Shown: piece after piece, positions 8,059 to 58,201 of the stretch
Layout of the letters: each line of letters starts with the position of its first letter
Position numbering within the stretch: position 1 is the stretch's first letter
Source of the DNA: a virus
IMG/VR virus record: IMGVR_UViG_3300007512_001547
Coordinates: 1-64,000 of that record
Reading direction: 5' to 3' (one strand)
Length of the DNA: 64,000 nucleotides
The notes under the pieces: model-generated
Seen by the model: the letters and a program-made list of their open reading frames with translations, nothing else
Told to the model about the DNA's origin: nothing
Database searches by the model: none
Program-made: the position numbers and the translations under genes

Positions 8059-8782
8059 AAATTTAAAAGTATCAATTAATAATAAAGAAATAATAAAAGA
8101 TTTAAATCTTGAAATTAAACAAGGCGAGATTCATGCCCTCATGGGTCCAAACGGTTCTGGCAAAAGTACTTTGTCTAATGTTTTAGCTGGAAAAGATGGC
8201 TATAATGTTACAGGAGAGATACTTTACAAAGGAGAAGATCTTTTAAAAATGTCAATAGAAGAAAGAGCAAGAAAAGGATTGTTTATGGCTTTTCAATATC
8301 CTATAGAAATTCCTGGTGTTAATACAATTAATTTTTTAAAAAGTTCTTTAAATGTGGTTCGAAAATCTAATAAAAAAGAAGCAATAGATACTTTTGAATT
8401 TTTAGATTTAGTAAAAGAAAAAGCTAAAGCTCTTAATGTTAATGGTTCTATACTTAATAGACATCTAAACGTAGGGTTCTCGGGTGGAGAAAAAAAGAAA
8501 AATGAAATATTACAAATGTCTGTTTTAGAACCTATGTTTGCTATTTTGGACGAAACAGATTCTGGATTAGACATTGATTCTTTAAAAATAATTTCTAATG
8601 GTATTAATTCTTTAAGAAGTATATGTAGATCTTTTTTAATTATTACACACTATCAACGTTTATTAGAACACATTAAACCAGACTTTGTTCACGTACTTGC
8701 AGATGGAAAAATAATCAAAACTGGTTGCAGTGAATTAGCTGAAGAATTAGACAAAGTAGGATATGGAGATAAAAATAGTTAG
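8045..8782 (+). CDS. sufC: Fe-S assembly ATPase SufC
   Basis: GPNGSGKS, FQYPIEIPGV, GFSGGEKKK, ILDETDSGLDID, ITHYQRLL. Confidence 0.98.
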   Translation: MLKIKNLKVSINNKEIIKDLNLEIKQGEIHALMGPNGSGKSTLSNVLAGKDGYNVTGEILYKGEDLLKMSIEERARKGLFMAFQYPIEIPGVNTINFLKSSLNVVRKSNKKEAIDTFEFLDLVKEKAKALNVNGSILNRHLNVGFSGGEKKKNEILQMSVLEPMFAILDETDSGLDIDSLKIISNGINSLRSICRSFLIITHYQRLLEHIKPDFVHVLADGKIIKTGCSELAEELDKVGYGDKNS

Positions 8783-10436
8783 AATAGTTCTAATATTATT
8801 CTTTGCATGGATTACTACGATTCAAGCAGAGATTGTAACAATAGAAAAACGTGGTGTTGCAGATGATATTATAACTTGTGAATGGGAAAACCAAGCAGGT
8901 GTTCCTTGTGTTACAATTAGCAAATCATTACCCAATTCAAATGCAATATCAGATAAAGTTTCTCCCACAACTGTAATCACTAAAAAACAAATTGAAGAAA
9001 ATAATTTAATTGACTTACCTAAAGTTTTAAATTTTGTTAATGGTATCAATGTAACACAATCTGGATCAACTGGACAACAAACGTCTGTGTTTATGAGAGG
9101 TACAAACTCAAACCATACATTAGTTTTATTAAATGGCATACCTATTAATGATTTTTCTACTCCAACAGGAGCATTTGACTTTGGACAAGACTTTATGTCT
9201 ACTGTTACGCAAGTTGAAGTTTATAAAGGAAGTGCTGGTGCTCACTTCGGTGCTGATGCTATTGGTGGTGCTATTAATTTTGTAACTACTGTTGACTATG
9301 AAAACAAATTTTCAGTTGGTGGCAATGGTGACAGTAAAACTATACAAGGAAATTACACAAAAGTTTTAAACGACTGGCATATAAACGTACAAGGTGGAAC
9401 ACACGAATCTGAAACAGTATCAGCATTATCAGGTGGTGCTGAAACAGATGGAACTAAAAATAAATCAATTGGCGTTAATATTATAAAATGGTTTTCAGAC
9501 AAATTAAAATTTAGATCTAGTTTGTTTACACGAAACACATTTACAGAGTTAGATGGACATTCGTTGGCTATTGAAAATGGATTTAGCGATAATTCGTTTT
9601 ATGCTTTTCAAACCGGATTTGATTATATAACTAAAGACTCCATCAACTCCCTAACACTTCATACACACGAATACGATAGAGAATATGAGTCTGACAATTA
9701 CAATTCTAAATCTTATACTATCAGAACAGAACACCAAACTAAAAAGTATGGATTAGGATTTGATTACAAATACGATCAATCACTAACTGCTGATAATGAT
9801 AATGTTGGCTTATTTGGAAATTTTAATTACAACATTTTTTCATTTCATGCAAGAAAAGATAATGACAACGATAGTTATAAAGTAGGATTTTTTAAAGAGA
9901 TAGCACCTAACTTTAATATTAGAGGTAACCATTCAACAGGATATAAAAATACAACTCTTTATACACTAGAAGAACAAAGTAATTCAAACGAATTAAGTTT
10001 TGATTATAATGATTTGACATTATCTCTTTTTCAATCTGATATTGGTGATTTAAACACAGATGGCGTAGAACTATCTTATAATATTGACAACTTTACAATA
10101 TATGGATCACATTTAAACAGTAAGAAAAATGATACAATTCAATTAAGACGTCCTGAATGGATTCTTGGTGTTAATCATAATACACTATTACCTGACAATT
10201 TCCAATTAATTACAAATTACAAATTTGTAGGAGAGCATCTAGACGTACATAATTCCAATTGGTCTACTATTCCTATGCCAGAAACACACTTATTAGACAT
10301 AGGTATAACAAAAAACTATTGGGGTTACGAGTTAGGTTTAAATATTAATAACATATTAGATGAAGATTATGAAGCACCACATGGTTTTAGTCAAAATGGT
10401 CGAAACCTTAATTTTATCTTTAAAAGAAAATTCTAA
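8763..10436 (+). CDS. TonB-dependent outer-membrane receptor, BtuB-like plug
   Basis: Signal peptide; plug motif FMRGTNSNHTLVLLNG, VEVYKG..GA..GADAIGGAIN; C-terminal Phe; NNILDEDYE...GRN. Confidence 0.9.
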   Translation: MEIKIVRIVLILFFAWITTIQAEIVTIEKRGVADDIITCEWENQAGVPCVTISKSLPNSNAISDKVSPTTVITKKQIEENNLIDLPKVLNFVNGINVTQSGSTGQQTSVFMRGTNSNHTLVLLNGIPINDFSTPTGAFDFGQDFMSTVTQVEVYKGSAGAHFGADAIGGAINFVTTVDYENKFSVGGNGDSKTIQGNYTKVLNDWHINVQGGTHESETVSALSGGAETDGTKNKSIGVNIIKWFSDKLKFRSSLFTRNTFTELDGHSLAIENGFSDNSFYAFQTGFDYITKDSINSLTLHTHEYDREYESDNYNSKSYTIRTEHQTKKYGLGFDYKYDQSLTADNDNVGLFGNFNYNIFSFHARKDNDNDSYKVGFFKEIAPNFNIRGNHSTGYKNTTLYTLEEQSNSNELSFDYNDLTLSLFQSDIGDLNTDGVELSYNIDNFTIYGSHLNSKKNDTIQLRRPEWILGVNHNTLLPDNFQLITNYKFVGEHLDVHNSNWSTIPMPETHLLDIGITKNYWGYELGLNINNILDEDYEAPHGFSQNGRNLNFIFKRKF

Positions 10437-10452
10437 TCTGTTATAATATAGT

Positions 10453-11997
10453 ATGAAACGAGTAGCACTCTTAATAGCACCACGAATACAAGATGATTTT
10501 GGTTATACTCCTGCAGGTCCGGCTTTAGTAAAAGGATCAATTAAAAAAGCAGGACATGACTGTAAAATTTTTGATTTTAACAGTGATCTTGAAAGAGAAT
10601 ATCAAGATTCAGAAATAGTTCCAATTGATAATTGGTTTATGAATCACAATTTCTATTCTGATAAAATCTATAAAAAAATACATGCTTTAATAGACAAGTG
10701 GACTGATGACGTCTTACAGTATGCACCAACCGACGTCGGAATAAGTGTATTTTCGTACAACAGTCAACGAGCAACTATAATGCTGGCAACAACCTTAAAA
10801 AGTAAAAATCCAGATATAAAAGTTTTTATTGGTGGAGCAGGATTAAACACTGATAACAAGTTTGGCAAATATTGTATGGATGAAAAAATTATTGACTGCT
10901 GGATACGTGGAGAGGGTGAACTATCAGTTCTAGCATATCTAGAAGGAAATCTTTCACATCCTGGACTTAATGGAATTCCACCAAAACAAATAGACAACAT
11001 TGACGATTTAGAATTTCCTGATTACAGTGATTATGAACTAGCCTCATATACTAACAAAAAAGGATTAGTTGCTTTACCTATTACAGGATCTAGAGGTTGT
11101 GTTAGAGCCTGTACATTTTGTGATATTGCAAGTATGTGGCCAAAATATAAATTTAGATCAGGTAAAAGTATTGCAAAAGAAATTAAAACACAGGTTAAGA
11201 AGTATGGTGCTAAAGCATTTAGATTTACCGATAGTTTAATTAATGGTTCAATGAAAGCATTTAGAGATATGACATACGAACTATCTAAATTTAGAATGGC
11301 TATAAAACCTGAAGATAGATTTATTTGGGATTCTCACTTTATTGTAAGAAATGAAAAACAAATGCCACCTCAGGACTTTAAAGTAATGGCAGAGTCTGGT
11401 GCAGGAACTTTACTAATAGGAGTAGAATCTGGATCAGCAAAAGTAAGAGAACATATGAAAAAAGGTTATACTGACGAAGATTTACATTACAGTCTCGAAC
11501 AAATATTTAAAAACAATATTAAAGTAAGATTTTTAATGATAATAGGGTACCCTACTGAAACAGAAGAGGACTTTCAACAAACATTAGACTTTTTTAATAG
11601 GTATGCTGAATATGGTCGCCAAGGATTAGTTGAGGAAGTAAATTTAGGACTTACTTTAAATCTTTTACCTAACACACCTTTATATGATAATGCTGAAAAG
11701 TTTGGACTTGATACAACAAAAGATCACATAAATGATTGGATATGTACTCAAAACCCAACATTAGATTTTAAAGAACGATTAAAAAGAAGAATAAATGCTC
11801 AACACTATGTTGAAAACTTAGGTTATAAAGTTTTTGAATCTAAAAATTATACTAGAGCATTGTCAATTGCTTGGAACGAAGTTAGTAAAATACAAATAGA
11901 TAACACTATTAAAATTGATGCTAGTAAAATAAAATTTGATAGAGAAAAAGGAATATTGGAACAGTCACCAGACTTTGATCCATTAAGAACTTATTAA
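10453..11997 (+). CDS. Cobalamin-binding radical SAM enzyme
   Basis: N-terminal B12-binding-like domain (GISVFS, VFIGG, GEGE); SRGCVRACTFC CxxxCxxC; IGVESGS; IIGYPTETEEDF. Confidence 0.92.
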   Translation: MKRVALLIAPRIQDDFGYTPAGPALVKGSIKKAGHDCKIFDFNSDLEREYQDSEIVPIDNWFMNHNFYSDKIYKKIHALIDKWTDDVLQYAPTDVGISVFSYNSQRATIMLATTLKSKNPDIKVFIGGAGLNTDNKFGKYCMDEKIIDCWIRGEGELSVLAYLEGNLSHPGLNGIPPKQIDNIDDLEFPDYSDYELASYTNKKGLVALPITGSRGCVRACTFCDIASMWPKYKFRSGKSIAKEIKTQVKKYGAKAFRFTDSLINGSMKAFRDMTYELSKFRMAIKPEDRFIWDSHFIVRNEKQMPPQDFKVMAESGAGTLLIGVESGSAKVREHMKKGYTDEDLHYSLEQIFKNNIKVRFLMIIGYPTETEEDFQQTLDFFNRYAEYGRQGLVEEVNLGLTLNLLPNTPLYDNAEKFGLDTTKDHINDWICTQNPTLDFKERLKRRINAQHYVENLGYKVFESKNYTRALSIAWNEVSKIQIDNTIKIDASKIKFDREKGILEQSPDFDPLRTY

Positions 11998-16755: not shown

Positions 16756-18102
16756 ATGTGCGGAATAGTCGGAATATACAACGTTCCTGAAGCCTCTAAA
16801 ATTGCGGCCTTAGGAATTCATGGATTACAACATCGAGGACAAGAAGGTGCGGGAATTATTTCATACAACAAAGAATTTCATATCCATGGCGACTATGGAC
16901 GTGTTGATCATATTTTTGGTAGCGACAAAGTTATAAAAAATCTTCCAGGTAGTACAGCAATTGGACACGTTAGATACAGCACTACTGGAGGCACAGGAAA
17001 AAGTAATGTTCAACCTTTATTTTATAATTTAGACTTTGGCGGCTTTGCTATTGCCCACAATGGTGACTTTACTGATTCTGCATATTGGAGAGAAAAGCTA
17101 ACCAAAGAAGGTGCAATATTTCAAACAACAACTGACACAGAAATTATTCCACATTTGATTGCTCGAACAAAAGGTATTGATCCTGTGGATCGTTTACTTA
17201 CAGTATTGAATAAAGTAGAAGGTGCATTTAGCATAGTAACTTTACTTGATGATAAATTAGTTGTTGCTCGAGATCCATATGGCTTTCGTCCTTTAGTTAT
17301 AGGTCAATACGAAGAAGGGTACGCAATAGCATCAGAAACCTGTGCTCTTGATTTAATTGGTGCAACAAACATTAAAGATATCGATCCTGGTACAGTAATC
17401 ATATTCAGTAATGGAAAAAAAGAAACATTTTATTTAGATAAAAAAGTTACAAAACATTTTTGTATATTTGAACACATTTATTTTTCACGTCCTGATACTG
17501 TTATTGATAATCAATTAGTATACGAAGTTCGTAAAAGAATAGGAGAAGAATTAGCAAAAGAAAGTTATGTTGAATCTGACATGGTTGTTCCTGTACCTGA
17601 TTCTGGAATGGCATCTGCACTTGGATATGCTAATCAATCAAAAGTACCTTTTGAACTAGGACTTACACGAAGTCATTACAAAGGAAGAACATTTATTGAA
17701 CCTACACAAAAAATACGAGACTTAGGTGTAAGATTAAAACATAGTGCTATGCAATTGTTTAAAGATAAAACAGTTACCGTTATTGACGATTCTATTGTAC
17801 GTGGAACTACATCTAAAAAAATTATAAAAATGATACGAAAAGCAGGTGCTAAAAAAATACATATGCGTATCTCATCTCCTCCTGTAACTGGACCATGCCA
17901 TTATGGTATTGATACTCCAAACAGAAAAGAACTTATAGCTGGAGAAAGTAATGTAAACGAAATTAAAGAATTTATTGGTGCTGATTCATTAGAGTATATT
18001 TCTATAGAAGGACTACATAAAGCTATGAAAAGTAAGGGCTACTGCGACGCTTGTTTTACAGGCAACTATCCAGTTAAAAAACAATTGGCTATAAACGATT
18101 AA
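16756..18102 (+). CDS. purF: Amidophosphoribosyltransferase
   Basis: N-terminal MCGIVG, QHRGQEGAG, GHVRYST, AHNG, VIDDSIVRGTT; four Fe-S Cys (FCIFE, PCHYG, YCDAC). Confidence 0.98.
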   Translation: MCGIVGIYNVPEASKIAALGIHGLQHRGQEGAGIISYNKEFHIHGDYGRVDHIFGSDKVIKNLPGSTAIGHVRYSTTGGTGKSNVQPLFYNLDFGGFAIAHNGDFTDSAYWREKLTKEGAIFQTTTDTEIIPHLIARTKGIDPVDRLLTVLNKVEGAFSIVTLLDDKLVVARDPYGFRPLVIGQYEEGYAIASETCALDLIGATNIKDIDPGTVIIFSNGKKETFYLDKKVTKHFCIFEHIYFSRPDTVIDNQLVYEVRKRIGEELAKESYVESDMVVPVPDSGMASALGYANQSKVPFELGLTRSHYKGRTFIEPTQKIRDLGVRLKHSAMQLFKDKTVTVIDDSIVRGTTSKKIIKMIRKAGAKKIHMRISSPPVTGPCHYGIDTPNRKELIAGESNVNEIKEFIGADSLEYISIEGLHKAMKSKGYCDACFTGNYPVKKQLAIND

Positions 18103-20793: not shown

Positions 20794-20839
20794 TATTTAA
20801 TACTTTCGAGTTTAAAAATTTATAACAATAAATATCATA

Positions 20840-21901
20840 GTGAAAAAGATCTTTTTAGTTACAGTGTTTGTTCTCTTTTCCTCAATATCTTTTGCCGAAA
20901 TTGATATCGATTGGAAGTGGGGAAAGGTATTCGATAGTGTTGTATTAATCAGCGGTGAGAATGTAGCTGAAACAATACCTAAAAGTCCTGACGTAGCACC
21001 ACACGAAAAAGAACAAAAGTTTGATTCTCTTAAACCAAGGATTATTCCATATGGCATGGGAACAGGTTTTTTTATTAATAAAATTCATATAGTAACAAAT
21101 TATCATGTTATTAAAAATTTTGATAAGATATCAATTTATGCTTTTAATCATTTGTTTCCAATAACAGATGTTACACTTGTAGGTTATGATGAAGAAATTG
21201 ATATTGCAGTACTACAAATTAATGAAGACGTTGAACATCATTTTTTAAGATGGTCAGATACTGCTCCTCTTATCGGGGAAGATGTTTATGCACTTGGACA
21301 TGGAATGAGTCAATTATGGTCATTAACAAAAGGTATTTTAAGTTATGATTATCGACAAAATCCAGGCACAAGTTTTGTTCATTATATGCAAACTGATGCT
21401 GTTATAAATTCTGGTAACTCGGGAGGTCCATTGCTTAATGAAGATGGCGAAGTTATAGGTGTTAATACCTTACTAATCTCACCAGACAAATATTATGTTG
21501 GATACGGTTATATCCTTCCAACGCCTTTAGTCAAACGAGCAGTTACTCAAATTTTAGCAACTGGAGAACACATTAAACCGTTTATGGGAATTCTAATGGG
21601 TCATATTGAAGGACGAGAACAGTACGAAGAATTAAAAGCAAAAGAAATAGGTCACTATTTAGAAATTAAAGAAGTTACTAAAAATTCGCCAGCAGACCAT
21701 TTTGGATTATTAGCAGGCGATATAATAATTTCAATTGACGATAAAGATATTCAAGTAGTACCTCAAGTAATTGAATTGCTATGGGAACGAAATCCTGGTG
21801 ACCAAGTAAGTTTCAAAGTTTATAGAGATCATGAATATCATACTATCGATATCGTTTTAGGAAAAGCAAAAAACCAAAAACCCAACAAATATCCAAAATA
21901 A
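20840..21901 (+). CDS. HtrA/DegP-like periplasmic serine protease with one PDZ domain
   Basis: Signal peptide; GTGF, TNYHV, DIAVL, QTDAVINSGNSGGPL; C-terminal PDZ (SPA...GL.AGDII). Confidence 0.93.
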   Translation: MKKIFLVTVFVLFSSISFAEIDIDWKWGKVFDSVVLISGENVAETIPKSPDVAPHEKEQKFDSLKPRIIPYGMGTGFFINKIHIVTNYHVIKNFDKISIYAFNHLFPITDVTLVGYDEEIDIAVLQINEDVEHHFLRWSDTAPLIGEDVYALGHGMSQLWSLTKGILSYDYRQNPGTSFVHYMQTDAVINSGNSGGPLLNEDGEVIGVNTLLISPDKYYVGYGYILPTPLVKRAVTQILATGEHIKPFMGILMGHIEGREQYEELKAKEIGHYLEIKEVTKNSPADHFGLLAGDIIISIDDKDIQVVPQVIELLWERNPGDQVSFKVYRDHEYHTIDIVLGKAKNQKPNKYPK

Positions 21902-22131: not shown

Positions 22132-22139
22132 TATAAATA
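22132..22139 (+). promoter_or_regulatory. T4-type late promoter TATAAATA
   Basis: Exact T4 late consensus 17 nt upstream of the giant-protein ATG, followed by GAGG RBS. Confidence 0.6.
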
Positions 22140-22156
22140 TTGCTGAGCGAGGTATT

Positions 22157-25100
22157 ATGTCAGAGCATTCCATTGGAAAAATTACAATTACTGACGGTGT
22201 CGTTGTAATTCAACGAGATAATCAGTCAATAGAACTACAAGAAGGCGATTCTATCTATCTTAATGATGTTGTAGAAGCCAAAGGCGGTTCTGTTGGTATT
22301 GCATTTGCTGACCAAACCTCAATGTCAATTGATCCAGGTGCAAAAATGGTCATTGACGAATTTGTTTATGACCCTGAAGATCCTACAACAGGTTCAATGA
22401 GCGCCAATGTAATCACAGGAAACTTTTCTTTTGTTTCAGGACAAATTGCCAAAGTGGGTAATGATGCAATGAAAGTTACAACACCTGTGTTAACAATTGG
22501 TGTTAGAGGTACACAGGTTGCAGGTAAGGCCAATACAGATGGTGAAGAAAACGAGATAGTTCTACTGCCAAACGATGATGGCACAGTTGGACAGATTATG
22601 ATCAAAAACGAATCTGGCGAAGTGTTATTGACAAAAGCATTTGAGGCAACAACAATTATAAATGCTTATACTGTTCCTACTGTACCTGTTATATTACCAA
22701 AAGAAATAGTTCTTAAAAAGTTTGCTTCTACTATTGCAACAACTAGAAAAACAGAAGCAAAAGCAGAAGTAGAAAGAGAAACGGAAGAAGCAGTTAGAGA
22801 AAAAGAAAAAGCCGAGGATGAAAAAGAAGAACTAGAAGAGGAAAAAGAAAAACTTGAGGAAGAACAAGAAGAACTAGAAGAAGAAAAGGAAGAACTAGAA
22901 GAAAAAGTTGAGGAACTTGAAGAAGAGAAAGAGGAAGTAGCAGAAGAGAAAGAAGAAATCGAAGAGAAACTTGAAGAAGTATTTGAAGAGAAAGAAGAAA
23001 TCGAAGAGAAGAAAGAAGAAGTTGTAGAAGAAATTGAGGAACTCGAAGAGAAATTAGAAGATGCCAACATACAAGAAAGACAGGCCATCGAGAAAGAACT
23101 AGAAAAATTAGAAGAAGAATTTGAAGAGATAGAGGACGAAGTACAAGAGATCGAGAAAGAGATTGATGTAGTTGCCAAAGAGAAGGTAGCGGTTGAGAAG
23201 AAAGTACGAGAGATTGAGAAAGAATTCGTTGAAGCAAAAAAAGATTTTGTTGAGATAGAACAAAAAGTAGAATTTGTTGAAAAAGAAGTATTAGAAGTAA
23301 TTGAAAAAGAACTAGTGATAGAGCAAGAGATTAAACTAGTTGAAGAAAAATTTGAAGCCATTGTAGAAGAATTTGAAGTGTTCCAAAAAGAATTCGTGCA
23401 GGAGTTCGAGGACTTCATTCCAGAAGAGGAGATACAACAGTTTATGGAAGAAGCACCAATAGAACTTATTGAGGAATTCCAAGAAAACATAATAGAAAAA
23501 TTAGAAGAAGAAAAAGTAAACATACAGGAAAATGAGAACGAAGTAAAGAAAGATGAGGAAGTAGAAGATCCATTTGCTGAAGAAAACGTTGAGAAGGCTA
23601 TAAAGGACTTGGACCAAAAGCAGGAAGAACTGATAGGTGAAGTAGACGAACTGATAGAGAAAGATATGGAACTTCAAGAAGAGGCTAAGGAACTAGATGA
23701 GAAAGCACAGCAACTTGAGGAAGAAGCACAGGAATTAGAAAAGGAAGCACGTCAATTAGAAGAAGAGGCAGAGAAAGCCTACGCAAACAATGACGAAGAA
23801 GCAATACAGGAAATCGAAGAAAAGTTCCAAGAACTAGATGAGAAGTTTGAGGAAGTTGATCAAGGGTTCCAACAAATTGACGAGGGTTTCCAAGAATTAG
23901 ACAAAGAGTACAAAGAACTTGACGAACAGTTCCAAGAGGTCAACGAGCAGTTTATCGATATAGATGAACAATTTCAGGAAGTGATAGAGTTCGAGCAGAA
24001 ACTTGAAGATAACCAACAGGTTGATGGACCAGGGTTCAACGAAGACAATGATGTGTTTAACGTGCCTGAAGATCAACAAGTAGACAACATAAAAGTAGAA
24101 CAGTTTATAAAGGAAGAAAAAGAAAAAGCACTAGAAAATAATGTGTTTGCCCAAGAGGCAGAGGATTTCTTTGAAAACGAGGAAGTTATCATAAACGAAG
24201 ATGTAGATGATCAAGTAAAAGATTTGTTTATCCTTAATGCACAAAACATTGATCAATTTATAGAAGGTGCTGGTAGTGGTATTAATAATGCAGAAGATTA
24301 TGAGGATCAAGAAAATGAATGGGCAGACTATGATGCCATAATGGACTACAACGAAGAAGCATACGAAGATCAACTAGAAGCAGATGCATGGTTTGATCAA
24401 TGGATAGCAGATTTGGCTGAAGAACAAAATATAAACGTTGCTCCATGGTTAGATATGCCAAACGATACAAGTGTTGCTGAAAGCCTATCTGTAGGAACGA
24501 CTTTAGGTTATGTGTATGGTTCAGACGCAAACGGTGATCAATTAACTTACAGCATATTAAGTGATGCATCAGGCAAGATTGCAATAGACGGAAGTAGATT
24601 GTATTTGAAAGAATCATTTGATACCATTTCATCCGACACAGAGTATTCCGTATTATTAAAAGTGCAAGATCCATATGGTGCATCTGATGTGGACGAATGG
24701 ACAGTTACAGTTGAGAACAACCACTCGCCTGTGATATCCAACACTAGTGCTGTGTCATTAGCAGAGAACGTTAGCACAGGTACAGCGGTGGCAACAATAT
24801 CTGCCTCTGACGCTGAAAGCGAAACAATAACATATTCAATAACAGCAGGTAATGACGAAGGCAAGTTTTCTATCAACAGTTCAACAGGTGTAATCACATA
24901 CAACACACAGACGGCTGTGCTGACCACAGAAACGTTTGAAAGCACTTCCGATGGTGCAACACCAACAGGTTGGACAGGATCAACAGTTGACGCCACGACC
25001 TACTACGGAAAAATATTAGGTAGGTTCAATGGAGATTCAAACACAGGACAGGATGTCTACAAGACATTTGATTTCAACAGTTCACACGCAGGCAAACGAG

Positions 25101-27247
25101 TCGAGATAGATTTCAACTTCTGGGAGTTTGGTACGTGGGACGCAACTAATCACGGATCACTGGATCAGAGATTCATGGTGTACGTGAACGACACGTTAGT
25201 TGTGCAGGACTTGAGAAGATACACAGGCTCAAACCAACAGAAGTATGGAGAAACAGTGGGTAACCTAGGCACAGGTTGGCAGGCGGCACCAGTTGAATCT
25301 GGCATGGCTATTGTAAACCAATATCAAGAAGGTGAACTTTACAGGGTGTACGGTACACTAGACAGCAATGGTGACATAAAATTAGGATTTGGTGCGAGAC
25401 TGGACGAGGGTATCAACAACGAGAGTGGTGCTGTTGACAACATAAAGATATCACTAACAGATTTAAATTACGAGGACGACACGCAACACGTTCTCACAAT
25501 TACGGCGACCGACGCAGGTAACAACACAGACACAGTTACACAGACAATCAATGTGACAGACGTCAACGAAGCACCATATTTCATTGACAATGTGTATGCG
25601 GCGAGAACGATAGCAGAGAACGGCTCGTCTGGTACAGATGTTGCCAAGGTACACGCAGAAGATCTCGAGGGAGATTCCATAACATATTCAATCACAGCAG
25701 GTAACACCGGCAATAAATTTACAATTAACTCATCGACGGGTCTGATCGAGACAGCAGGTGCACTGGACTATGAGACGACCAGTTCATACACATTAACGAT
25801 TACAGCAACTGATGAGCATAGTGCAACCGACACAACCACGATAACAGTGAACGTGTCTGATGACACATCGGACAATAGTTTCGCCCAAGGCATAAGCAAC
25901 ACTTCTATAGATGCCTGGGGAGCAAGATACTCGCATGACATGGTATTAAACAACGCATGGGCGGAAGGTAATGTTTTAGTGATGCACGGTGACAGAACTT
26001 TAAGCGGTAGCACCCAACTGGGTGGCAATCTTGGAGATACTCAGGCTGGATCATTATCTGTTTCCTACGATAATGATAGTGCTGGTAATTTTTCTACTAT
26101 GAGTTTGGCATACGTATCACAGTTTTCACAGATTTGGGATGGAAATTGGAACACAAGGGTTAATAGCAATAGTGATCTAACTGATCTTTGGGGCAAATAC
26201 CTCATGGCAGGAGGCTCGTTGGTTGTAGTCACAGAACACTCTGGTTGGGACAATGCCAAGAATGCCGACGTAGAAGATTTCATCAATGTGATTGACACAA
26301 CGTCATCGACTAACAACAATTTGATCAGTGGATCCGGTCCAACTCCACAACACCTACAACCAGATTACCTAGGGTACTCTGAAGGAAGTTCGGAACTGGA
26401 GTTAAAGCCGGGACAGTCAACATCAACCTATCACAAAGAGTACATGGGTAGAGGAGATCTGGTGTTCCAAGAAACAGGTAATGACAACGATGGTGCAGTG
26501 GCAGAATGGAGCAGAGAAGACACAGAAGCGGTGTACACAGGAGCATTCCTTGCCTGGGGTGACATTGATGCTCACAGTCACATCTCTTCTTTTGGATCAG
26601 AACAAGCACATTGGGAGATTGCTAGATGGTTAACAGAACAGAACGAGGACGCAATGACAGAATCGGACGGTGCAGGCATAGTGGTTGACTCTGAATACCT
26701 TCCGAGGTTTGCAGATTCATATGGATCCGGGATACACGAGACAGAGAATGATATTACTGCTATAGAATCACTTCACCTAGGTAACAATGTGTACATTGGG
26801 GGTGGTATGGATCACATCGACCTTGTGTGGGATGACTCGGCGGACGCCGCATACTGGGCCTTTAACTCAGACATGGACAACGGTGCAACACCAACTCAAG
26901 CAGATGATCACTATGGTGTGATAGGTTATGACCGGGACGGTGATGGAGATCTCTGGGAGACCACTGACACATTCACCCTAAACAAAATCAAGATACTGGA
27001 TGACTCGGAGGACTACCTGACACAAGACCCAGATGCCAGTGGCGATTATTACTTTAAAATAACACCGGTTGTTTACGCTGGTGGCAGTTGGCAAGTGGTC
27101 ACCTCACAAACAGTGACAGTTTCAAACACAACAGGCTACAACGATTACCTTGATTTAGATGCAGTTTCTGATGCTTTCGACAACATAAATTACGCACTGA
27201 TCGAGACAGAGTCGGCACTAATATCAGAAGTTGTGGTTTCTACATAA
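22157..27247 (+). CDS. Giant acidic T1SS-substrate-like protein: FecR/retention-module N-terminus, Glu-rich coiled coil, three cadherin repeats, inserted lectin-like domain, C-terminal domains
   Basis: IGKI...G.V.I.R...GDSIYLND...TTPVLTIGVRGT; heptad repeats; LDYE/DVNEAP cadherin motifs; no Sec signal. Confidence 0.85.
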   Translation: MSEHSIGKITITDGVVVIQRDNQSIELQEGDSIYLNDVVEAKGGSVGIAFADQTSMSIDPGAKMVIDEFVYDPEDPTTGSMSANVITGNFSFVSGQIAKVGNDAMKVTTPVLTIGVRGTQVAGKANTDGEENEIVLLPNDDGTVGQIMIKNESGEVLLTKAFEATTIINAYTVPTVPVILPKEIVLKKFASTIATTRKTEAKAEVERETEEAVREKEKAEDEKEELEEEKEKLEEEQEELEEEKEELEEKVEELEEEKEEVAEEKEEIEEKLEEVFEEKEEIEEKKEEVVEEIEELEEKLEDANIQERQAIEKELEKLEEEFEEIEDEVQEIEKEIDVVAKEKVAVEKKVREIEKEFVEAKKDFVEIEQKVEFVEKEVLEVIEKELVIEQEIKLVEEKFEAIVEEFEVFQKEFVQEFEDFIPEEEIQQFMEEAPIELIEEFQENIIEKLEEEKVNIQENENEVKKDEEVEDPFAEENVEKAIKDLDQKQEELIGEVDELIEKDMELQEEAKELDEKAQQLEEEAQELEKEARQLEEEAEKAYANNDEEAIQEIEEKFQELDEKFEEVDQGFQQIDEGFQELDKEYKELDEQFQEVNEQFIDIDEQFQEVIEFEQKLEDNQQVDGPGFNEDNDVFNVPEDQQVDNIKVEQFIKEEKEKALENNVFAQEAEDFFENEEVIINEDVDDQVKDLFILNAQNIDQFIEGAGSGINNAEDYEDQENEWADYDAIMDYNEEAYEDQLEADAWFDQWIADLAEEQNINVAPWLDMPNDTSVAESLSVGTTLGYVYGSDANGDQLTYSILSDASGKIAIDGSRLYLKESFDTISSDTEYSVLLKVQDPYGASDVDEWTVTVENNHSPVISNTSAVSLAENVSTGTAVATISASDAESETITYSITAGNDEGKFSINSSTGVITYNTQTAVLTTETFESTSDGATPTGWTGSTVDATTYYGKILGRFNGDSNTGQDVYKTFDFNSSHAGKRVEIDFNFWEFGTWDATNHGSLDQRFMVYVNDTLVVQDLRRYTGSNQQKYGETVGNLGTGWQAAPVESGMAIVNQYQEGELYRVYGTLDSNGDIKLGFGARLDEGINNESGAVDNIKISLTDLNYEDDTQHVLTITATDAGNNTDTVTQTINVTDVNEAPYFIDNVYAARTIAENGSSGTDVAKVHAEDLEGDSITYSITAGNTGNKFTINSSTGLIETAGALDYETTSSYTLTITATDEHSATDTTTITVNVSDDTSDNSFAQGISNTSIDAWGARYSHDMVLNNAWAEGNVLVMHGDRTLSGSTQLGGNLGDTQAGSLSVSYDNDSAGNFSTMSLAYVSQFSQIWDGNWNTRVNSNSDLTDLWGKYLMAGGSLVVVTEHSGWDNAKNADVEDFINVIDTTSSTNNNLISGSGPTPQHLQPDYLGYSEGSSELELKPGQSTSTYHKEYMGRGDLVFQETGNDNDGAVAEWSREDTEAVYTGAFLAWGDIDAHSHISSFGSEQAHWEIARWLTEQNEDAMTESDGAGIVVDSEYLPRFADSYGSGIHETENDITAIESLHLGNNVYIGGGMDHIDLVWDDSADAAYWAFNSDMDNGATPTQADDHYGVIGYDRDGDGDLWETTDTFTLNKIKILDDSEDYLTQDPDASGDYYFKITPVVYAGGSWQVVTSQTVTVSNTTGYNDYLDLDAVSDAFDNINYALIETESALISEVVVST
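22810..23400 (+). repeat. In-frame imperfect 21-nt (7-aa) repeat array encoding acidic heptads
   Basis: EKEELEE/EKEKLEE/EQEELEE/KVEELEE/EKEEIEE...; boundaries approximate. Confidence 0.8.
23590..24000 (+). repeat. Second heptad array in giant protein
   Basis: AQQLEEE/AQELEKE/ARQLEEE and KFQELDE/KFEEVDQ/GFQQIDE/GFQELDK/QFQEVNE; boundaries approximate. Confidence 0.75.
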
Positions 27248-27265
27248 AATAAATATACATATTAA

Positions 27266-29116
27266 ATGAAAAAATTAGTTAATTACATCCTAATAGCAAT
27301 AATGCTGAACTGGAACGTGACTGTTTTTGCGGACGACGATGTTGAGGGTTGTAAATGGGAAGTAGTTGAAGAAACTGAACAGTATCTACAGGAACAATGT
27401 ATAGGAGTAGACGGTCAATATAGTGCAAGAATAAGATCTAAACCTATCGACAACAGTATAGTATATGTAAAAACTGAAAAGAAAGATGCAAATCCTATAC
27501 AAAAATATAGAGACAGTGAAGTATTAAAAACACCGATTGGTGTACATGACGATTTAAAAATTGCAGAGTTAAAAGAAGAAGTTGAAACAACTGCAAAAAA
27601 AATTGATCAACTAAAAATAGATCAAGCAGTAGAAGAAAAGAAAAAAATTGAGTTAGATGTAGTTGAAAAAGCAATTGAACACATTGAAGAAAAGAAAACT
27701 GCAGAAACAGAAAAAGCACAAGTACTTGATCCAAAACTTAAAAATGAATTAAACAAAAAAGACATACATGAAGAGTCAGATAAAAAAATTATTGCAGAAG
27801 CAGAAGAAAAAGAATGGAAAGAAGTAGATGAAAATGTTGAAGTTGCGGAAGTAGAAAAAGAGCCTAAAATTAATTGGATGACATTGTATCAAATGTTACC
27901 AAGACTTATTTTAGAAAACGAAAAAGTTAAAGCGGCAGAATTAGATTATGAAGCGGCATTAGAAACATTAAAATCAGAATATTCTGCATACTATCCTCAA
28001 GTAACAATTACTGTAGGAAACAACTGGGAAGACGACAGATCAGTTTCTAAAGGCACATATCCTAGCAATACAATTACACATGACGGAAAACACGGTGTAC
28101 AAAAATCTATTTCAATTACACAAATGTTATGGGACTTTGGAAGAACAACGGCTGTTATCGACAAAGCAAAACACACAGCACAACAGGCCTATTATAGATT
28201 AGAACTTGCAACAGAAGATGTTGTTATGGAAGCCATTAATGCATGGTTAAATCTACAGAAAGCATACAACACACACGAAGCAAATAAAAAAGTAGAAGCA
28301 AATGCAAAAATTACACTTGCAATGACAATAGAGAAAGTTAAAGCAGGACAAGGTTCTAAACTAGAACAACTGCAAATAGAACAGCAATATAGAACATATC
28401 AAACAATAGTAATGACAAGTAACCTACAACTTGATTCAGCAATACAGAGATTCCAAAATGTATGGAGATACTATCCTACAGATGTTGCAAGTATGCCAAT
28501 ACCATTTGCAGACTTATTAGGTATCATACCTGATTCAGGAAGATCGGTAACTGACAACACTACATTAAAAATTGCACATTTAGATATTGAGATTGCAAAA
28601 GAACAAAAGAAATTTAGCGATGCAGAGTTTAGACCTAGAATAGATGGTAAACTTTCTTACACAGAAAAAGACGGAGAGTTAAGTGGTGGATATGATACTG
28701 ATGACGCACAAAAAGAAGAGTTTAGAGCAGATATTACATTAACTTGGAAACTGTTTGCTGGAGGTAAAAACAAACATATGAATAGTGCTGATAGAATAAG
28801 AATGGAAGCCGCTATTACAAGATATGCTGATACTAAAAGAACAGTACAAGAACAATTTACCAATGCATGGAACAACTATGTATTAGTTGAAAAAAATCTA
28901 GAGACTCTAAAAAGAACAGTAGAAATCAATGATGAGATGTACAAACTTACACTTGCAGACTTTCAAGCAGGTAATTCACCTATAATGGCTGTGTTTGGCA
29001 TGAAGACAGCACATATTATGAGTGAAGTTGCTTATGCAAATGCTCAACTAGATTTATTAATTGCTAGATACCAATTACATAAAGTTCTAGGACTCGTAGA
29101 TCCAAAACTAGACTAA
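27266..29116 (+). CDS. TolC-family outer-membrane channel with about 180-aa charged N-terminal extension
   Basis: Signal peptide; AYYPQV, TQMLWDFGRT, EFRPRIDG, LTWKLFAGG, YQLHKVLG. Confidence 0.9.
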   Translation: MKKLVNYILIAIMLNWNVTVFADDDVEGCKWEVVEETEQYLQEQCIGVDGQYSARIRSKPIDNSIVYVKTEKKDANPIQKYRDSEVLKTPIGVHDDLKIAELKEEVETTAKKIDQLKIDQAVEEKKKIELDVVEKAIEHIEEKKTAETEKAQVLDPKLKNELNKKDIHEESDKKIIAEAEEKEWKEVDENVEVAEVEKEPKINWMTLYQMLPRLILENEKVKAAELDYEAALETLKSEYSAYYPQVTITVGNNWEDDRSVSKGTYPSNTITHDGKHGVQKSISITQMLWDFGRTTAVIDKAKHTAQQAYYRLELATEDVVMEAINAWLNLQKAYNTHEANKKVEANAKITLAMTIEKVKAGQGSKLEQLQIEQQYRTYQTIVMTSNLQLDSAIQRFQNVWRYYPTDVASMPIPFADLLGIIPDSGRSVTDNTTLKIAHLDIEIAKEQKKFSDAEFRPRIDGKLSYTEKDGELSGGYDTDDAQKEEFRADITLTWKLFAGGKNKHMNSADRIRMEAAITRYADTKRTVQEQFTNAWNNYVLVEKNLETLKRTVEINDEMYKLTLADFQAGNSPIMAVFGMKTAHIMSEVAYANAQLDLLIARYQLHKVLGLVDPKLD

Positions 29117-29139
29117 CAGATTCATTAAATACACATATA

Positions 29140-29895
29140 ATGAAAAACCTAATACGACATCTGTCCAAAGAACCAGGCACGGCATCAATGCTGTTTACCA
29201 GCAGTTTCATAATTGGTATTTGTGCTTTGGCCCCTGCACTATTTGTTATAATTGTTCTTAACAAGTATCTAACATCAGGTGTCACAGCAACATTAATAAG
29301 TTTGTCAATTGGAGCAGTGTTGGCCATAGCATTTGAGTTCACTTTTAGACAGAACAGAGGCAAGATGATGACCGCTTTCAACCAACGTGTGTATGATCCT
29401 CTGTTGAAAGCATTTGGAGAAAAATTTAGCAAAGCAGGACAACTCACTGCACAGCAGTATAAAAAATTAGACAGTGCAGGCACAATGATTAAAAATATGA
29501 GGACATCATCGATGACTAGTTGGATATTGGACTGGCCTTTTGTGTTGATGTTTTTGATTGTGTTGCTGTACATAAATTGGGCCGCATCAATAATCACAGC
29601 AATATTCATGTTGGTAATGTACTTTTTGATAACATGGAAAAAGAACGTGTCCATGTCACAGGACACACAGAGCAACATAGAAATATTTTTAAACGGATTA
29701 CAGACAATCGTGATCATGTCAGTTGGTGCAATGATGATTATAGCCGGCACACTGGACATTGGATTACTGATCGGTTCTAACATATTGGCCGCCCGAGCAT
29801 TACAAGGAACCAGCAAGTATGCCAAGGCAAACGAATTTTTAAAGCAACGAGATCAAGCAGTTGGAGAAATAATAAATTATGTCAAAAGCAAGTAG
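29140..29895 (+). CDS. T1SS ABC-transporter membrane domain only (no nucleotide-binding domain)
   Basis: S.FII.I.ALAP.LFV, FEF.FR..R, LDWPF, G.LDIG.LI...IL.ARAL resemble PrtD/LapB TMD; stop codon follows directly. Confidence 0.8.
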   Translation: MKNLIRHLSKEPGTASMLFTSSFIIGICALAPALFVIIVLNKYLTSGVTATLISLSIGAVLAIAFEFTFRQNRGKMMTAFNQRVYDPLLKAFGEKFSKAGQLTAQQYKKLDSAGTMIKNMRTSSMTSWILDWPFVLMFLIVLLYINWAASIITAIFMLVMYFLITWKKNVSMSQDTQSNIEIFLNGLQTIVIMSVGAMMIIAGTLDIGLLIGSNILAARALQGTSKYAKANEFLKQRDQAVGEIINYVKSK

Positions 29896-30580
29896 TAGAT
29901 TCTTTTTTGCGATAACAACACTGTTTGTTATATTCTTCGTTTGGATGGTATTTGCAAAAGTAGACATAACAACACAGGCAGTTGGAATTGTTGTACCTGA
30001 GAAAAACATCACAAAACTAGGCACAATGGTCACAGGAGAAATTGTTGCTGTGAATTACAAGCAAGGAGATGTTGTCAAGAAAGGTGATGTCATAATAACA
30101 ATCAATCCAGGAGTTGGTTACGAACCTAGAAACATTGTGGCAAACATTGATGGCAGGATACAAGAACTCACTTATAGAAATCCAGGTTCCGTTGTAAAAC
30201 AGGGTGACGGACTTGCAATACTTGTACCATTAGATCAGAAACTTATAGTTAATGGAAGGCTTCTTGTAAAAGATAGAGGTTATGTCAAGGTTGGAATGGA
30301 CGCAAAAGTGAGACTTGCCAATCAAGACCAATTAAAATTTGATAGCATTGATGCAAAAATAATATCCATATCTCCAGATGCTGTACAGTCTGACAGTGCC
30401 GCATGGTATGACATAGAACTAGAAATAGAAAAAGAATTTTTCACAAGTGGTGACACGACTTACAATCTTGTGCCTGGTATCCATGTGTATGTTTTCATAT
30501 TAACAGGAGAGAGAACAGTATTAAGTTATATAACAACACCTTTCCATAACGGAATAGGGCAGGCACTACAGGAAAGGTAA
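29879..30580 (+). CDS. Short HlyD-family membrane-fusion protein lacking alpha-helical hairpin
   Basis: N-terminal TM, WM.FAKVDI...G.V.P, GDVVKKGD, DRGYVKVG, ISPDA, LVPG, I.TGERTVLSY. Confidence 0.88.
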   Translation: MSKASSRFFFAITTLFVIFFVWMVFAKVDITTQAVGIVVPEKNITKLGTMVTGEIVAVNYKQGDVVKKGDVIITINPGVGYEPRNIVANIDGRIQELTYRNPGSVVKQGDGLAILVPLDQKLIVNGRLLVKDRGYVKVGMDAKVRLANQDQLKFDSIDAKIISISPDAVQSDSAAWYDIELEIEKEFFTSGDTTYNLVPGIHVYVFILTGERTVLSYITTPFHNGIGQALQER

Positions 30581-32508
30581 TGAGATTTTTTACAAGCATA
30601 TGGATGGTTATTATTGTTGCTATTGTATTGCTAGGTGTCAGAGTAAACAATAACGATACTGTAAAAACTTTAAGATACAAAACGTGGGATTACTTTCAAA
30701 CTATACATCCTAGACAAGACGTTAGTGATTTAGTTACTATTGTTGATATAGGCGAAAAAGATATTGCAAAGTATGGACAATGGCCATGGCCTAGACATAT
30801 AATGGCAATGCTTCATGCACGATTAGGCGACGCAGGAGCAGTAGTAATTAATTACAATATTCTTTTTGCTGAACCAGATCGTATGGGATCAACCCAATAT
30901 CTAAATTCTTTTCCGATGTCTGATGAAACTAGAGAACTATTACAAAAAAATTTAGTAGACACAGACAAAGTTTTTTCTATAGTAATAAAAGAATCTGGCA
31001 ATACTATTTTAATGATGAGTGTTAAAAATAACATTGATAACATTTTACCTAGCACAACGCAAATTATAAAAAAAGGAAATGTAGAGCCATGGTTATGGAA
31101 CTATGCAGGTATAGTACCTCCTTTGACTGAACTTACAGTAGGTGTAGCAGGAAGTGGTGTAAATGTAACAGCACCCGAACCTGATTCTGTTGTAAGAAAA
31201 ATGCCAATACTAATAACAATAGGCAACAAAATATATCCTAGTATGTTAATTGAAAATGTTAGAGTAATTAACAAATCGAAAAGAATTAAAGTTGTTGCTA
31301 AAGAACACGGTATAGACGAAATCCTTGTTAAAAAGAATGCTGGAATACCTGTAAATCATAATGCAGAAATGTATATAAATTATGCAGATCCAAAAAAATA
31401 TAATCACGTATCTGCTGACTATGTTTTAAGTTCTGAATTTGATGCAAATACAGTTAAAGGAAAAATAGTAGTTGTTGGATTAGATGCCGCGGGATTAAGT
31501 GTGTTAAAATATACACCGTTTGGATTAGCTACAGATCAAGAAATTACTGCTCAAGCATTAGATACATTACTAACAGGAAAATATTTGACTAGGCTTCCAC
31601 AGGCAGATACATATGAAATTTTGTTTATGGGTTTACTAGGATTATTAATGATTATATTAATTCCTAGAGTATCAGTATTATTTTCTATTCCGTTATTAGT
31701 TTTTGTATTAGGTGGAATAAGTTATGCATCATTTATGGCTTATGCAAATAAAGGATTTTTAATTGACCCATCATTTGCAGTACTTTATATATTTTTAATT
31801 TGGTCACATAGCACATACAATAATTTTGCAACACAAAGTAGATTAAGAAAACAAATTAAAAAACAATTTGAACATTATTTAGATCCTGGCATGGTTAAAA
31901 AGTTACAAAAGAATCCATCATTGTTAAAATTAGGTGGCGAAACAAAAACAATGACTTTCTTATTTTCAGACATAAGAGGATTTACACCTATTAGTGAAAA
32001 GTATAAAGGTAATCCAGAAGGACTTACAAAATTAATTAATAGATTTTTAACTAGGATGACCAATGTTATTATTGCTAACGGCGGCACAATAGATAAATTT
32101 ATGGGCGACTGTATAATGGCATTTTGGAATGCTCCACTTGATGTACCAAATCATCAAGTATTAGCAATACAAACTGCTCTACAAATGCAAACCGAATTAG
32201 CAAAATTAAATAAAGAATTAGAAGCTGAAGGATTACCAAACATTAACATAGGCATAGGAATCAACACAGGTGAAGCACTTGTAGGCAACATGGGTTCTGA
32301 TCAAAGATTTGATTATTCTGTAATAGGTGACTCTGTTAACCTTGCATCACGTTTAGAAAGCTCTAGTAAAACATTAGGAAAAACTTTAGTAATTTCAGAC
32401 AATACAGTGCAAGATATTTACGAAGGTGTATTTCCGTTTGAGTATATTGACCATATTACAGTCAAAGGCAAAACAGAAGAAATCAAAGTGTATACAATCA
32501 AAAGTTAA
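30580..32508 (+). CDS. CHASE2-domain class III adenylate cyclase
   Basis: VDIGEKDIAKYGQWPWPR, three TMs, FSDIRGFT, IDKFMGDCIMAFW, YSVIGDSVNLASRLE. Confidence 0.96.
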   Translation: MRFFTSIWMVIIVAIVLLGVRVNNNDTVKTLRYKTWDYFQTIHPRQDVSDLVTIVDIGEKDIAKYGQWPWPRHIMAMLHARLGDAGAVVINYNILFAEPDRMGSTQYLNSFPMSDETRELLQKNLVDTDKVFSIVIKESGNTILMMSVKNNIDNILPSTTQIIKKGNVEPWLWNYAGIVPPLTELTVGVAGSGVNVTAPEPDSVVRKMPILITIGNKIYPSMLIENVRVINKSKRIKVVAKEHGIDEILVKKNAGIPVNHNAEMYINYADPKKYNHVSADYVLSSEFDANTVKGKIVVVGLDAAGLSVLKYTPFGLATDQEITAQALDTLLTGKYLTRLPQADTYEILFMGLLGLLMIILIPRVSVLFSIPLLVFVLGGISYASFMAYANKGFLIDPSFAVLYIFLIWSHSTYNNFATQSRLRKQIKKQFEHYLDPGMVKKLQKNPSLLKLGGETKTMTFLFSDIRGFTPISEKYKGNPEGLTKLINRFLTRMTNVIIANGGTIDKFMGDCIMAFWNAPLDVPNHQVLAIQTALQMQTELAKLNKELEAEGLPNINIGIGINTGEALVGNMGSDQRFDYSVIGDSVNLASRLESSSKTLGKTLVISDNTVQDIYEGVFPFEYIDHITVKGKTEEIKVYTIKS

Positions 32509-32519
32509 ATACACACATA

Positions 32520-32801
32520 ATGAATCAATTTTTTAGTCTAGTAGCAGAATTAGGATTACCAATTGCCGCAACAGTGGGAATGGGTGTATTCATACTGTTC
32601 ATAATCAAATATATTTTAAACGGTATTGTAAATTCAATTAAATTTATTGAAAGTGTTATATCTCAACTTGATAACAGAGTAAAAACAATGAACAACGATA
32701 TTATAAAAATTGATCAAGAAGTGTCAGAGCAACTAGGCATACCTGTAGACACAGACAGAGTGGCTAGGGCAGACGGCAAAGTAGATGCGAGGAAAGACTA
32801 A
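32520..32801 (+). CDS. Small single-TM membrane protein
   Basis: ELGLPIA + TM + LDNRVKTMNNDII coiled coil; paralog of next gene. Confidence 0.8.
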   Translation: MNQFFSLVAELGLPIAATVGMGVFILFIIKYILNGIVNSIKFIESVISQLDNRVKTMNNDIIKIDQEVSEQLGIPVDTDRVARADGKVDARKD

Positions 32802-33049
32802 TGGACGTTGTAAGCAAAACAATGACAGTAACGACAATCATACAGGACTATGGGTTCCCCACTGTCGCTGTGTTCTTCCTTGCATATTTTATATGGTTCC
32901 TTTGGAAATACATTACAAACGAAATTACTCCAAAATTAAATTCCACATCAGCAACACTTATCAAACTCATTGATAGAGTACGTATGCTGGACAATGACCT
33001 TATTCGACTACAGGCTAAAGTGAGAACTGTTAGCAAAAAGAAGAAGTAG
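32801..33049 (+). CDS. Small single-TM membrane protein
   Basis: DYGFPTV + TM + LIDRVRMLDNDLI; paralog of previous gene. Confidence 0.8.
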   Translation: MDVVSKTMTVTTIIQDYGFPTVAVFFLAYFIWFLWKYITNEITPKLNSTSATLIKLIDRVRMLDNDLIRLQAKVRTVSKKKK

Positions 33050-58036: not shown

Positions 58037-58201
58037 AAAAGAAAAAGGTATGGAAAATTTTAGATGGAACTTACAAGAAACCAATAGGCAAAGAGGATGT
58101 AGAGAGACTAATAGCGGCAGTACAACAGGAATGCTATTGGGACGACAGAGATGTGGAAACTTGGGACGAAATAAACTCGGGCAAAATAGATTGGAGTGGA
58201 G

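Follow-up and report, generated by a model that had tools for sequence, protein, structure and literature searches.

Pelagimyophages carry a curli gene cluster whose function was left open by the studies that described it (Zaragoza-Solas et al. 2020, PMC7029224; Buchholz et al. 2022, PMC9004378), the second of which proposed a lysis-timing role for the phage CsgGF proteins. Genes for FecR, a cyclase, and a "histidine kinase" were subsequently added to this cluster, in podophages and myophages alike (Wittmers et al. 2022, PMC9599517), and TolC is not mentioned in any of these three papers. In bacteria, FecR and CHASE2 form a sensor pair in the BiofilmReg operon of Burkholderia (PMC5192318), and the CHASE2 cyclase CyaD1 and the FecR-domain protein SMc02177 have been studied in S. 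meliloti (PMC5498481). The adhesin LapA is retained in a TolC-like pore (Smith et al. 2017, bioRxiv 10.1101/198937). Here we describe a phage locus, a cassette of seven adjoining, co-oriented open reading frames (ORFs) at positions 22157–33049, + strand, of the uncultured virus record IMGVR_UViG_3300007512_001547. The cassette encodes, in order, a giant FecR-domain protein, a TolC-family channel, the membrane domain of an ABC exporter, a HlyD-family adaptor, a CHASE2 adenylate cyclase, and two small proteins. The stretch analyzed, hereafter the window, is the first 64 kb of this 137.6-kb IMG/VR contig, for which CheckV gives a completeness of 29%, and its proteins were annotated by searches against Pfam, NCBIfam (TIGR profiles), PHROG, and PDB.

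With middling confidence, we propose that a bacterial cassette, which pairs a large FecR-headed protein exported by type I secretion with a CHASE2 adenylate cyclase, was streamlined in phages to give the present one, and, as part of the same explanation, that the latter is a sister form of the pelagiphage curli–FecR–cyclase cluster.

Comparison with the pelagiphage curli cluster

The cyclase gene (30580–32508, + strand) encodes a 642-residue class III adenylate cyclase that matches the CHASE2 (E-value 2.4e-41) and Guanylate_cyc (E-value 1.7e-23) families, with a predicted layout of a periplasmic CHASE2 domain, transmembrane (TM) segments, and a cytoplasmic catalytic domain. Over its full length it is 37% identical to the cyclase of Pelagibacter phage HTVC008M and 33% identical to that of Methylophilales phage Melnitz, two phages with the curli-type cluster. 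Residues D464, K506, D510, T563, and R591 are invariant in a cyclase alignment, and N587, present here, is a Ser in Melnitz; the catalytic set of a metal-binding Asp pair, Lys and Thr for the substrate, and Asn and Arg for the transition state is thus retained. A scan of IMG/VR with a cyclase alignment returned more than 579 viral contigs, and those with enough flanking sequence showed two architectures, the curli type and a type with the gene order giant protein, TolC, membrane domain, HlyD, cyclase, small protein, small protein. At least 16 distinct viral contigs show the latter, flanked on either side by phage genes; a synteny search of this kind had been named as a check in the preliminary description of this locus. 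TolC, membrane domain, HlyD, and cyclase are all kept at 11 viral loci, 10 of which also have the pair of small proteins, and the giant gene adjoins the export genes at every phage locus with enough upstream DNA. In a FastTree phylogeny the cyclases of both phage types form one clade with 100% support, apart from the bacterial cyclases, and within this clade the two architectures are sister groups.

A 4.4-kb viral contig (L024) encodes a cyclase 89% identical to that of the window, followed by a convergently oriented second cyclase gene (547 amino acids) and then csgF–csgG; both cassette types can therefore occur side by side in some phages. Three further contigs are titled as bacterial metagenome-assembled genomes (MAGs), namely L096 with the type I secretion system (T1SS) architecture, L137 with the curli architecture, and L099 with a cyclase inside the phage clade, and these are probably phage DNA binned into MAGs.

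In HTVC008M and Melnitz the genes follow the order small, small, CsgF, CsgG, curlin, FecR, curlin, cyclase. The FecR domain (37–40% identity), the cyclase (33–37%), and the pair of small proteins (42–52%) are shared with the cassette described here, as is the provision of an outer-membrane channel together with an exported surface protein. The two clusters differ in that TolC, the ABC membrane domain, and HlyD here take the place of CsgF/CsgG and the curlin-repeat proteins, and in that FecR is here fused to a giant, putatively exported protein and has lost its signal peptide. No CsgG was found in the contig, and no curlin-like matches were found in the T1SS-type loci. The small proteins, of 93 residues (32520–32801, + strand; phrog_18771, E-value 1.5e-29) and 82 residues (32801–33049, + strand; phrog_18771, E-value 1e-23), are paralogs, since both match the same PHROG family. 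The first begins with a single TM segment, beyond which a helical region is predicted, and is 52% identical to an HTVC008M ORF just upstream of csgF; for the second, ORFs of HTVC008M and Melnitz show 42% and 49% identity, respectively. Judged by position, these single-pass proteins are probably the "histidine kinase" genes of the published clusters (PMC9599517). The preliminary description had presented the locus as a candidate undescribed system. This holds only in part, since the core of FecR, cyclase, and small proteins was already contained in the curli clusters of that study. At two related loci an additional conserved membrane protein of 127–130 amino acids is encoded between hlyD and the cyclase gene (L007:9008–9391 and L010:13175–13567), and this protein is absent from the window and from the whole 137-kb contig.

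The giant protein (22157–27247, + strand) has 1696 residues and matches FecR (residues 39–135, E-value 2.4e-5) and Cadherin (E-value 5.4e-30) in Pfam as well as cadherins in the PDB. A FecR domain at residues 5–180 is followed by an acidic, Glu-rich stalk of about 560 residues (about 198–759), two cadherin-like repeats that together occupy residues 760–925 (assigned by position), an unassigned insert (926–1136), a cadherin domain (1137–1233), and an equally unassigned C-terminal region of about 460 residues (1234–1696), and the net charge of the protein is −288. The lectin domain that had been attributed to the protein was not recovered, as the insert at residues 926–1136 has no family match and no PDB match. 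The structure of the C-terminal region was not informative either: an AlphaFold2 (AF2) model of the last 456 residues, built from five sequences, had a mean predicted local distance difference test (pLDDT) score of 40 and was not usable, and the best score in an ESM Atlas search (0.77) was uninformative. The FecR domain is 40% identical to the FecR protein of HTVC008M, 37% to that of Melnitz, and 32% to a FecR–RTX protein of Afipia described below. The curli-type FecR proteins of HTVC008M and Melnitz are made with Sec signal peptides, and the first residue of the giant protein corresponds to the one right after their cleavage site; neither a signal peptide nor a TM or hydrophobic segment was found in its sequence and hydropathy profile. 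This difference from homologs with 37–40% identity agrees with the earlier view of the giant protein as a putative type I substrate with a periplasmic FecR end. Its tail, rich in acidic and hydrophobic residues, is nearly identical among relatives that are otherwise 36–70% identical, and its final ...SEVVVST is conserved in L007, L010, and L096; this conserved tail appears to resemble a type I C-terminal secretion signal.

Export genes and their bacterial counterparts

The three genes between the giant gene and the cyclase gene encode homologs of type I secretion components. The TolC-family outer-membrane channel (27266–29116, + strand; 616 amino acids with a signal peptide) matches OEP (E-value 6e-49) and, with residues 206–610, TIGR01844 (E-value 3.8e-36). 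Alignment with a 463-residue bacterial TolC shows a phage-specific N-terminal extension of ~180 residues, composed of a small domain with two conserved Cys residues and a K/E-rich linker of variable length. In an AF2 model the core has a pLDDT of about 90 and a TolC-like pattern of helices and strands, and the extension is of low confidence.

The second export protein, of 251 amino acids (29140–29895, + strand), has no Pfam match and no significant match in a PDB sequence search. It aligns to positions 153–301 of TIGR03375 (E-value 1.9e-18), a match confined to the membrane part of type I secretion permease/ATPases, and it contains no nucleotide-binding domain. BLASTP against the full-length ABC protein of the bacterial locus L107 aligns its residues 22–145 with residues 181–308 and its residues 194–219 with residues 415–438. 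It thus corresponds to TM1–3 and TM6 of full-length bacterial exporters; the roughly 58 residues that join TM3/4 to TM6 and carry the second cytoplasmic coupling loop in such exporters are missing. The HlyD-family adaptor (29879–30580, + strand; 233 amino acids) matches type_I_hlyD (TIGR01843, E-value 5.6e-45) at positions 24–90 and 272–422 alone, with positions from about 91 to 271 unmatched. Residues 115–296 of a syntenic 445-residue HlyD from Afipia, which form the alpha-helical hairpin, have no counterpart in the phage protein, and its cytoplasmic N-terminus amounts to merely about seven residues.

The reduced genes are under strong purifying selection and are not decaying, as seen from their low substitution ratios and their near-fixed truncated lengths. 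Pairwise ratios of nonsynonymous to synonymous substitution (dN/dS) are 0.03–0.07 for the membrane domain and about 0.04 for HlyD, and no stop codons interrupt the genes. Of 836 homologs found for the membrane domain, 120 were listed, 113 of which are 248–251 amino acids long; one homolog lies on a 295-kb contig.

Bacterial counterparts were collected by a scan restricted to one genome per species, which gave 79 loci, mostly from Alphaproteobacteria, with cyclases 32–39% identical to that of the phage. Genes for ABC and HlyD proteins lie beside the cyclase gene at 24 of the 79 loci. Neighbor counts were taken from the 43 loci with full flanks, at which the cyclase gene has a FecR gene as neighbor in 25 cases, ABC and HlyD genes in 15, ABC, HlyD, and FecR genes in 9, and a TolC gene in 8. 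The statement of the preliminary description that FecR genes neighbor CHASE2 cyclases therefore stands. The phage gene order is found at a locus in an Afipia MAG (L113), which encodes a 1267-residue FecR–RTX protein, a 577-residue ABC protein with ATPase, a 445-residue HlyD, and a CHASE2 cyclase, and also at L116 and L121; L107 adds a plain TolC of 463 residues. The FecR proteins linked to a T1SS in bacteria have 653–2128 residues and no signal peptide. FecR proteins at most other bacterial loci have 165–443 residues and a signal peptide, with five exceptions of 896–3313 residues. This split between large and small FecR proteins parallels the split between the two phage architectures.

The phage cassette and the alphaproteobacterial loci are therefore alike in gene set, in order (L113, L116, and L121), and in the possession of a large FecR protein without a signal peptide, and their cyclases are 33–39% identical. 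They are unlike in that the bacterial ABC protein keeps its ATPase, HlyD keeps its hairpin, and TolC has no N-terminal extension; the FecR protein of Afipia contains RTX repeats; and the bacterial loci lack the pair of small proteins. Judged from these alignments, the phage genes are reduced derivatives of the bacterial cassette. That an intact locus of this kind might be ordinary in bacterial chromosomes had been raised in the preliminary description as an argument against a phage system, and this proved partly so, as ABC and HlyD genes are present beside the cyclase at the 24 loci mentioned, whereas the phage genes are reduced. The bacterial cassette is itself apparently undescribed: no paper was found on bacterial loci for a FecR protein, ABC, HlyD, and a CHASE2 cyclase, none of the papers in the collection searched joins CHASE2 with a T1SS, and the single match for CHASE2 with RTX was unrelated.

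Among described machines, HlyB/HlyD/TolC and PrtD/E/F share with the phage set a homologous membrane domain, adaptor, and outer-membrane factor, as well as a substrate without a signal peptide, but the phage set has neither an ATPase nor a second coupling loop, and its adaptor has lost the hairpin and nearly all of the cytoplasmic N-terminus. Because the ATPase and the adaptor hairpin are missing, two defining features of type I secretion are not found here; a TolC-family factor is present. The described FecR/CHASE2 units resemble the cassette in that a periplasmic FecR-domain protein is encoded beside a CHASE2 transmembrane sensor. There, in contrast, FecR is small and Sec-exported, the output may be a histidine kinase, and neither a secretion system nor a surface fiber is part of the unit. 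With LapA and LapBCE the cassette would share a giant type I adhesin whose folded N-terminal module is expected on the periplasmic side of a TolC-like pore, and "LapB" is the name given by the Joint Genome Institute to homologs of the phage membrane domain. Unlike in LapA, the N-terminal module here is a FecR domain and not the LapA retention module, and the partner regulator is a cAMP cyclase, where the Lap system uses a c-di-GMP receptor that works inside-out; a cAMP cyclase in this position suggests outside-in signaling. No LapG-type protease (Peptidase_C93) was found in the contig, an estimated 29% or so of the genome (no search was made for LapD), and no TAAG-type site was seen on reading the giant-protein sequence.

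A further arrangement was observed in the MAG "Rickettsiales bacterium MED657" (2.0 Mb), in which, at L180, a C39-domain ABC protein of 719 residues is encoded next to a HlyD with an N-terminal cyclic-nucleotide-binding domain (E-value 1.6e-18). Two contigs that encode the phage-type membrane domain of 255 residues, L096 among them, belong to this MAG as well.

Late-promoter-like motifs and the carrier phage

Within the cassette, TAAATA sites are found at 22134, 27250, 29126, and 32506. These four sites and the seven contiguous, co-oriented genes are as the preliminary description had given them, and the motifs are conserved in relatives. The first site is part of TATAAATA (22132–22139, + strand), a T4-type late-promoter-like motif 18 nt upstream of the giant gene that occurs once in the 64 kb against 13 copies expected. 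The late-promoter-like motif ATAAATA (27249–27255, + strand) precedes tolC, and TTAAATA is found 8 nt upstream of both the membrane-domain gene (29125–29131, + strand) and the first small gene (32505–32511, + strand). Across the window ATAAATA is depleted and strand-specific: about 30 copies would be expected, and 12 are present on the + strand and none on the − strand. All but one of the 12 are located 12–37 nt upstream of the next listed ORF start, three baseplate-wedge genes being among these ORFs; for the remaining copy, at 2458, the distance to the next start is 356 nt. The motif frequently ends 5–10 nt upstream of the start codon, a proximity that implies very short mRNA leaders, or none, for the late genes.

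In six related contigs, the giant gene, tolC, and the membrane-domain gene each have TAAATA about 8–10 nt upstream of their ATG; in this comparison the motif is absent before hlyD and the cyclase gene. The copy upstream of the giant gene is kept in L010 and L015; that of tolC in L005, L007, L008, L010, L015, and L096; and that of the membrane-domain gene, with unchanged spacing, in six relatives. Two contigs were examined for the motif of the first small gene, and L015 has it with equal spacing and L096 has none. These conserved positions define the cassette as four late-type units: one each for the giant protein and TolC, a third that joins membrane domain, HlyD, and cyclase, and a fourth for the pair of small proteins. 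A scan for sigma-70 promoters and terminators gave results at chance level.

The cassette is flanked by baseplate wedge genes, a clamp loader gene, and many PHROG families, and the clamp loader is nearest to those of the jumbo phages PA5oct and Phosso. With such neighbors, the carrier is a large uncultured marine phage with T4-type late promoters, distinct from the 140-kb pelagimyophages. Cassette carriers in general appear to be jumbo phages, unlike the 140-kb pelagimyophages or podophages. That the cassette belongs to the phage, as originally proposed, is upheld by the T4-type late motifs within it and by the baseplate wedge and clamp loader genes on its flanks. GC content is 0.37–0.42 over 22–28 kb, compared with about 0.31–0.33 in the surroundings. 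A DNA search of the 11-kb region against isolated phages gave no match, and a search of isolated phages returned merely weak partial matches to HlyD, in doubtful "phage" records.

Several other genes of the window deserve mention. Immediately upstream of the cassette (20828–21901 overall) lies a gene for an HtrA/DegP-like periplasmic protease with Trypsin_2 and PDZ domains (20840–21901) and its own ATAAATA motif. This protease was considered as a LapG analog and rejected, as it is not next to the cassette in relatives. The region 5809–11997 contains sufB, a VOC/glyoxalase-family gene, sufE, and sufC, followed by genes for a BtuB-like TonB-dependent receptor (557 amino acids, with a Plug domain) and a B12-binding radical SAM enzyme, and looks like a phage-borne cofactor supply set. 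The ABC ATPase encoded at 8045–8782 was evaluated as the missing motor of the export machine; it is the SufC of this suf operon and was rejected. A PurF-like amidophosphoribosyltransferase (GATase and Pribosyltran domains) is encoded at 16756–18102, and a large AAA+ protein of the "ATP-dependent protease" family (phrog_4871, 782 amino acids) at 58196–60544.

Proposed working and alternatives

From homology, synteny, the reductions, selection, the late motifs, and the loss of the signal peptide, we infer that the giant protein is the substrate of TolC, membrane domain, and HlyD and is displayed on the infected cell late in infection, and that its FecR head stays in the periplasm and acts on CHASE2. 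In the working that we propose, the four late-promoter-driven units would express the giant protein; TolC; membrane domain, HlyD, and cyclase; and the small proteins late in infection. The giant protein would exit C-terminus first through the ABC-derived membrane channel and TolC, so that a polyanionic stalk of ~560 residues would carry the cadherin and C-terminal regions at the cell exterior, with the FecR domain left in the periplasm. There, the FecR domain would bind the CHASE2 domain, such that the state of the surface fiber sets cAMP production, and the two single-pass proteins, which are a phage addition, would probably modulate the cyclase. The energy for export may come from the membrane potential acting on the polyanion and from Ca-dependent folding outside the cell.

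Several observations weigh against this proposal. No type I ATPase is encoded in the 137-kb contig, where SufC is the sole ABC_tran match, and no ABC_tran match above the cut-off was found in five related contigs; we know of no type I system that functions without an ATPase. The hairpin of HlyD normally docks TolC, and the phage HlyD has lost it. RTX (HemolysinCabind) repeats were not detected in the giant protein by Pfam. No cyclic-nucleotide-binding protein was found in the contig, in the complete genomes of HTVC008M and Melnitz, or in three large contigs, and gene neighborhood is the one basis for contact between FecR and CHASE2. The contig represents only about 29% of the estimated genome, and missing parts may be encoded elsewhere. 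The most explicit form of the mechanism can be advanced only tentatively and strikes us as doubtful. In this form, ATPase-free export derived from a T1SS would be driven by the membrane potential, which would pull the polyanionic stalk through the ABC-derived channel, and by a ratchet formed by calcium-dependent folding of the cadherin domains in seawater. The retained FecR plug would report to the CHASE2 cyclase whether the fiber is intact or loaded and whether cells, particles, or other phages have touched it, an outside-in cAMP signal that would set lysis timing or exclusion, to which the preliminary description had added aggregation; the complete bacterial cassettes would share this logic.

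An unlikely alternative, and the main one, assigns the motor to the host. An ATP-driven type I system of the host would export the giant protein, the phage membrane domain and short HlyD would, as adaptors or partners, redirect this system to the phage TolC, and cAMP made by the phage cyclase would activate it. The missing phage ATPase fits this arrangement, and the MED657 MAG, which holds phage-type contigs, encodes a full C39-domain ABC protein and a HlyD with a cyclic-nucleotide-binding domain that is a possible cAMP receptor. However, the link between phage and MAG is one of metagenomic binning alone, and the phage membrane domain, at 28% identity to the ABC protein of this MAG, is no closer to it than to other bacterial ABC proteins. 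Moreover, type I ABC exporters are homodimers with two ATPase domains, and a partner without an ATPase would be expected to poison such a pump.

It is rather improbable that export of the giant protein is not the purpose of the cassette at all, with TolC, the short HlyD, and the membrane domain forming an envelope-spanning scaffold or pore for lysis timing, depolarization, or uptake, and the giant protein being a virion fiber or released upon lysis. The reductions have a pattern that would suit a scaffold, as the secretion machine has lost all of its cytoplasmic parts and retained those in the membrane and periplasm. A late promoter of its own precedes the giant gene, as is the case for structural genes, and acidic coiled-coil and Ig/cadherin-like domains are common in phage fibers; a lysis-timing role has, in addition, already been proposed for CsgGF (PMC9004378). 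Against such a scaffold, the FecR domain has its orthologs among Sec-exported periplasmic proteins and in the head regions of type I substrates from bacteria, the tail of the giant protein is like a type I signal, the gene order is that of bacterial substrate–ABC–HlyD–cyclase loci, and the giant gene stands beside the export genes at every locus with enough upstream DNA. Finally, it is very improbable that the cassette is a decaying remnant, left from the chance capture of a bacterial type I locus, or that an assembly error joined bacterial DNA to a phage contig; two of the three machine genes are shortened in comparison with bacterial homologs and GC content is raised over 22–28 kb, but the conservation data contradict this reading, with a dN/dS of 0.03–0.07, lengths of 248–251 residues in 113 of 120 listed homologs of the membrane domain (836 found), late motifs inside the cassette that are conserved in relatives, and the same arrangement in at least 16 independent viral contigs.

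The cassette has consequences at three levels. A type I set that is under strong selection and yet has no ATPase, coupling loop, or TolC-docking hairpin challenges current ideas on how such machines are powered and how they bridge the envelope. The bacterial cassette is carried by relatives of Bradyrhizobium and Afipia, which are genetically tractable Alphaproteobacteria, and the question of the CHASE2 ligand thereby becomes directly testable. For the phages themselves, what the curli cluster does in SAR11 phages has been described as a mystery from 2020 onward, and here a second, unrelated export machine is found in the same frame of FecR, cyclase, and small proteins. Two unrelated machines in one frame suggest that the selected function is an exported fiber read by a FecR/CHASE2 cAMP sensor, and not the curli amyloid or the pore.

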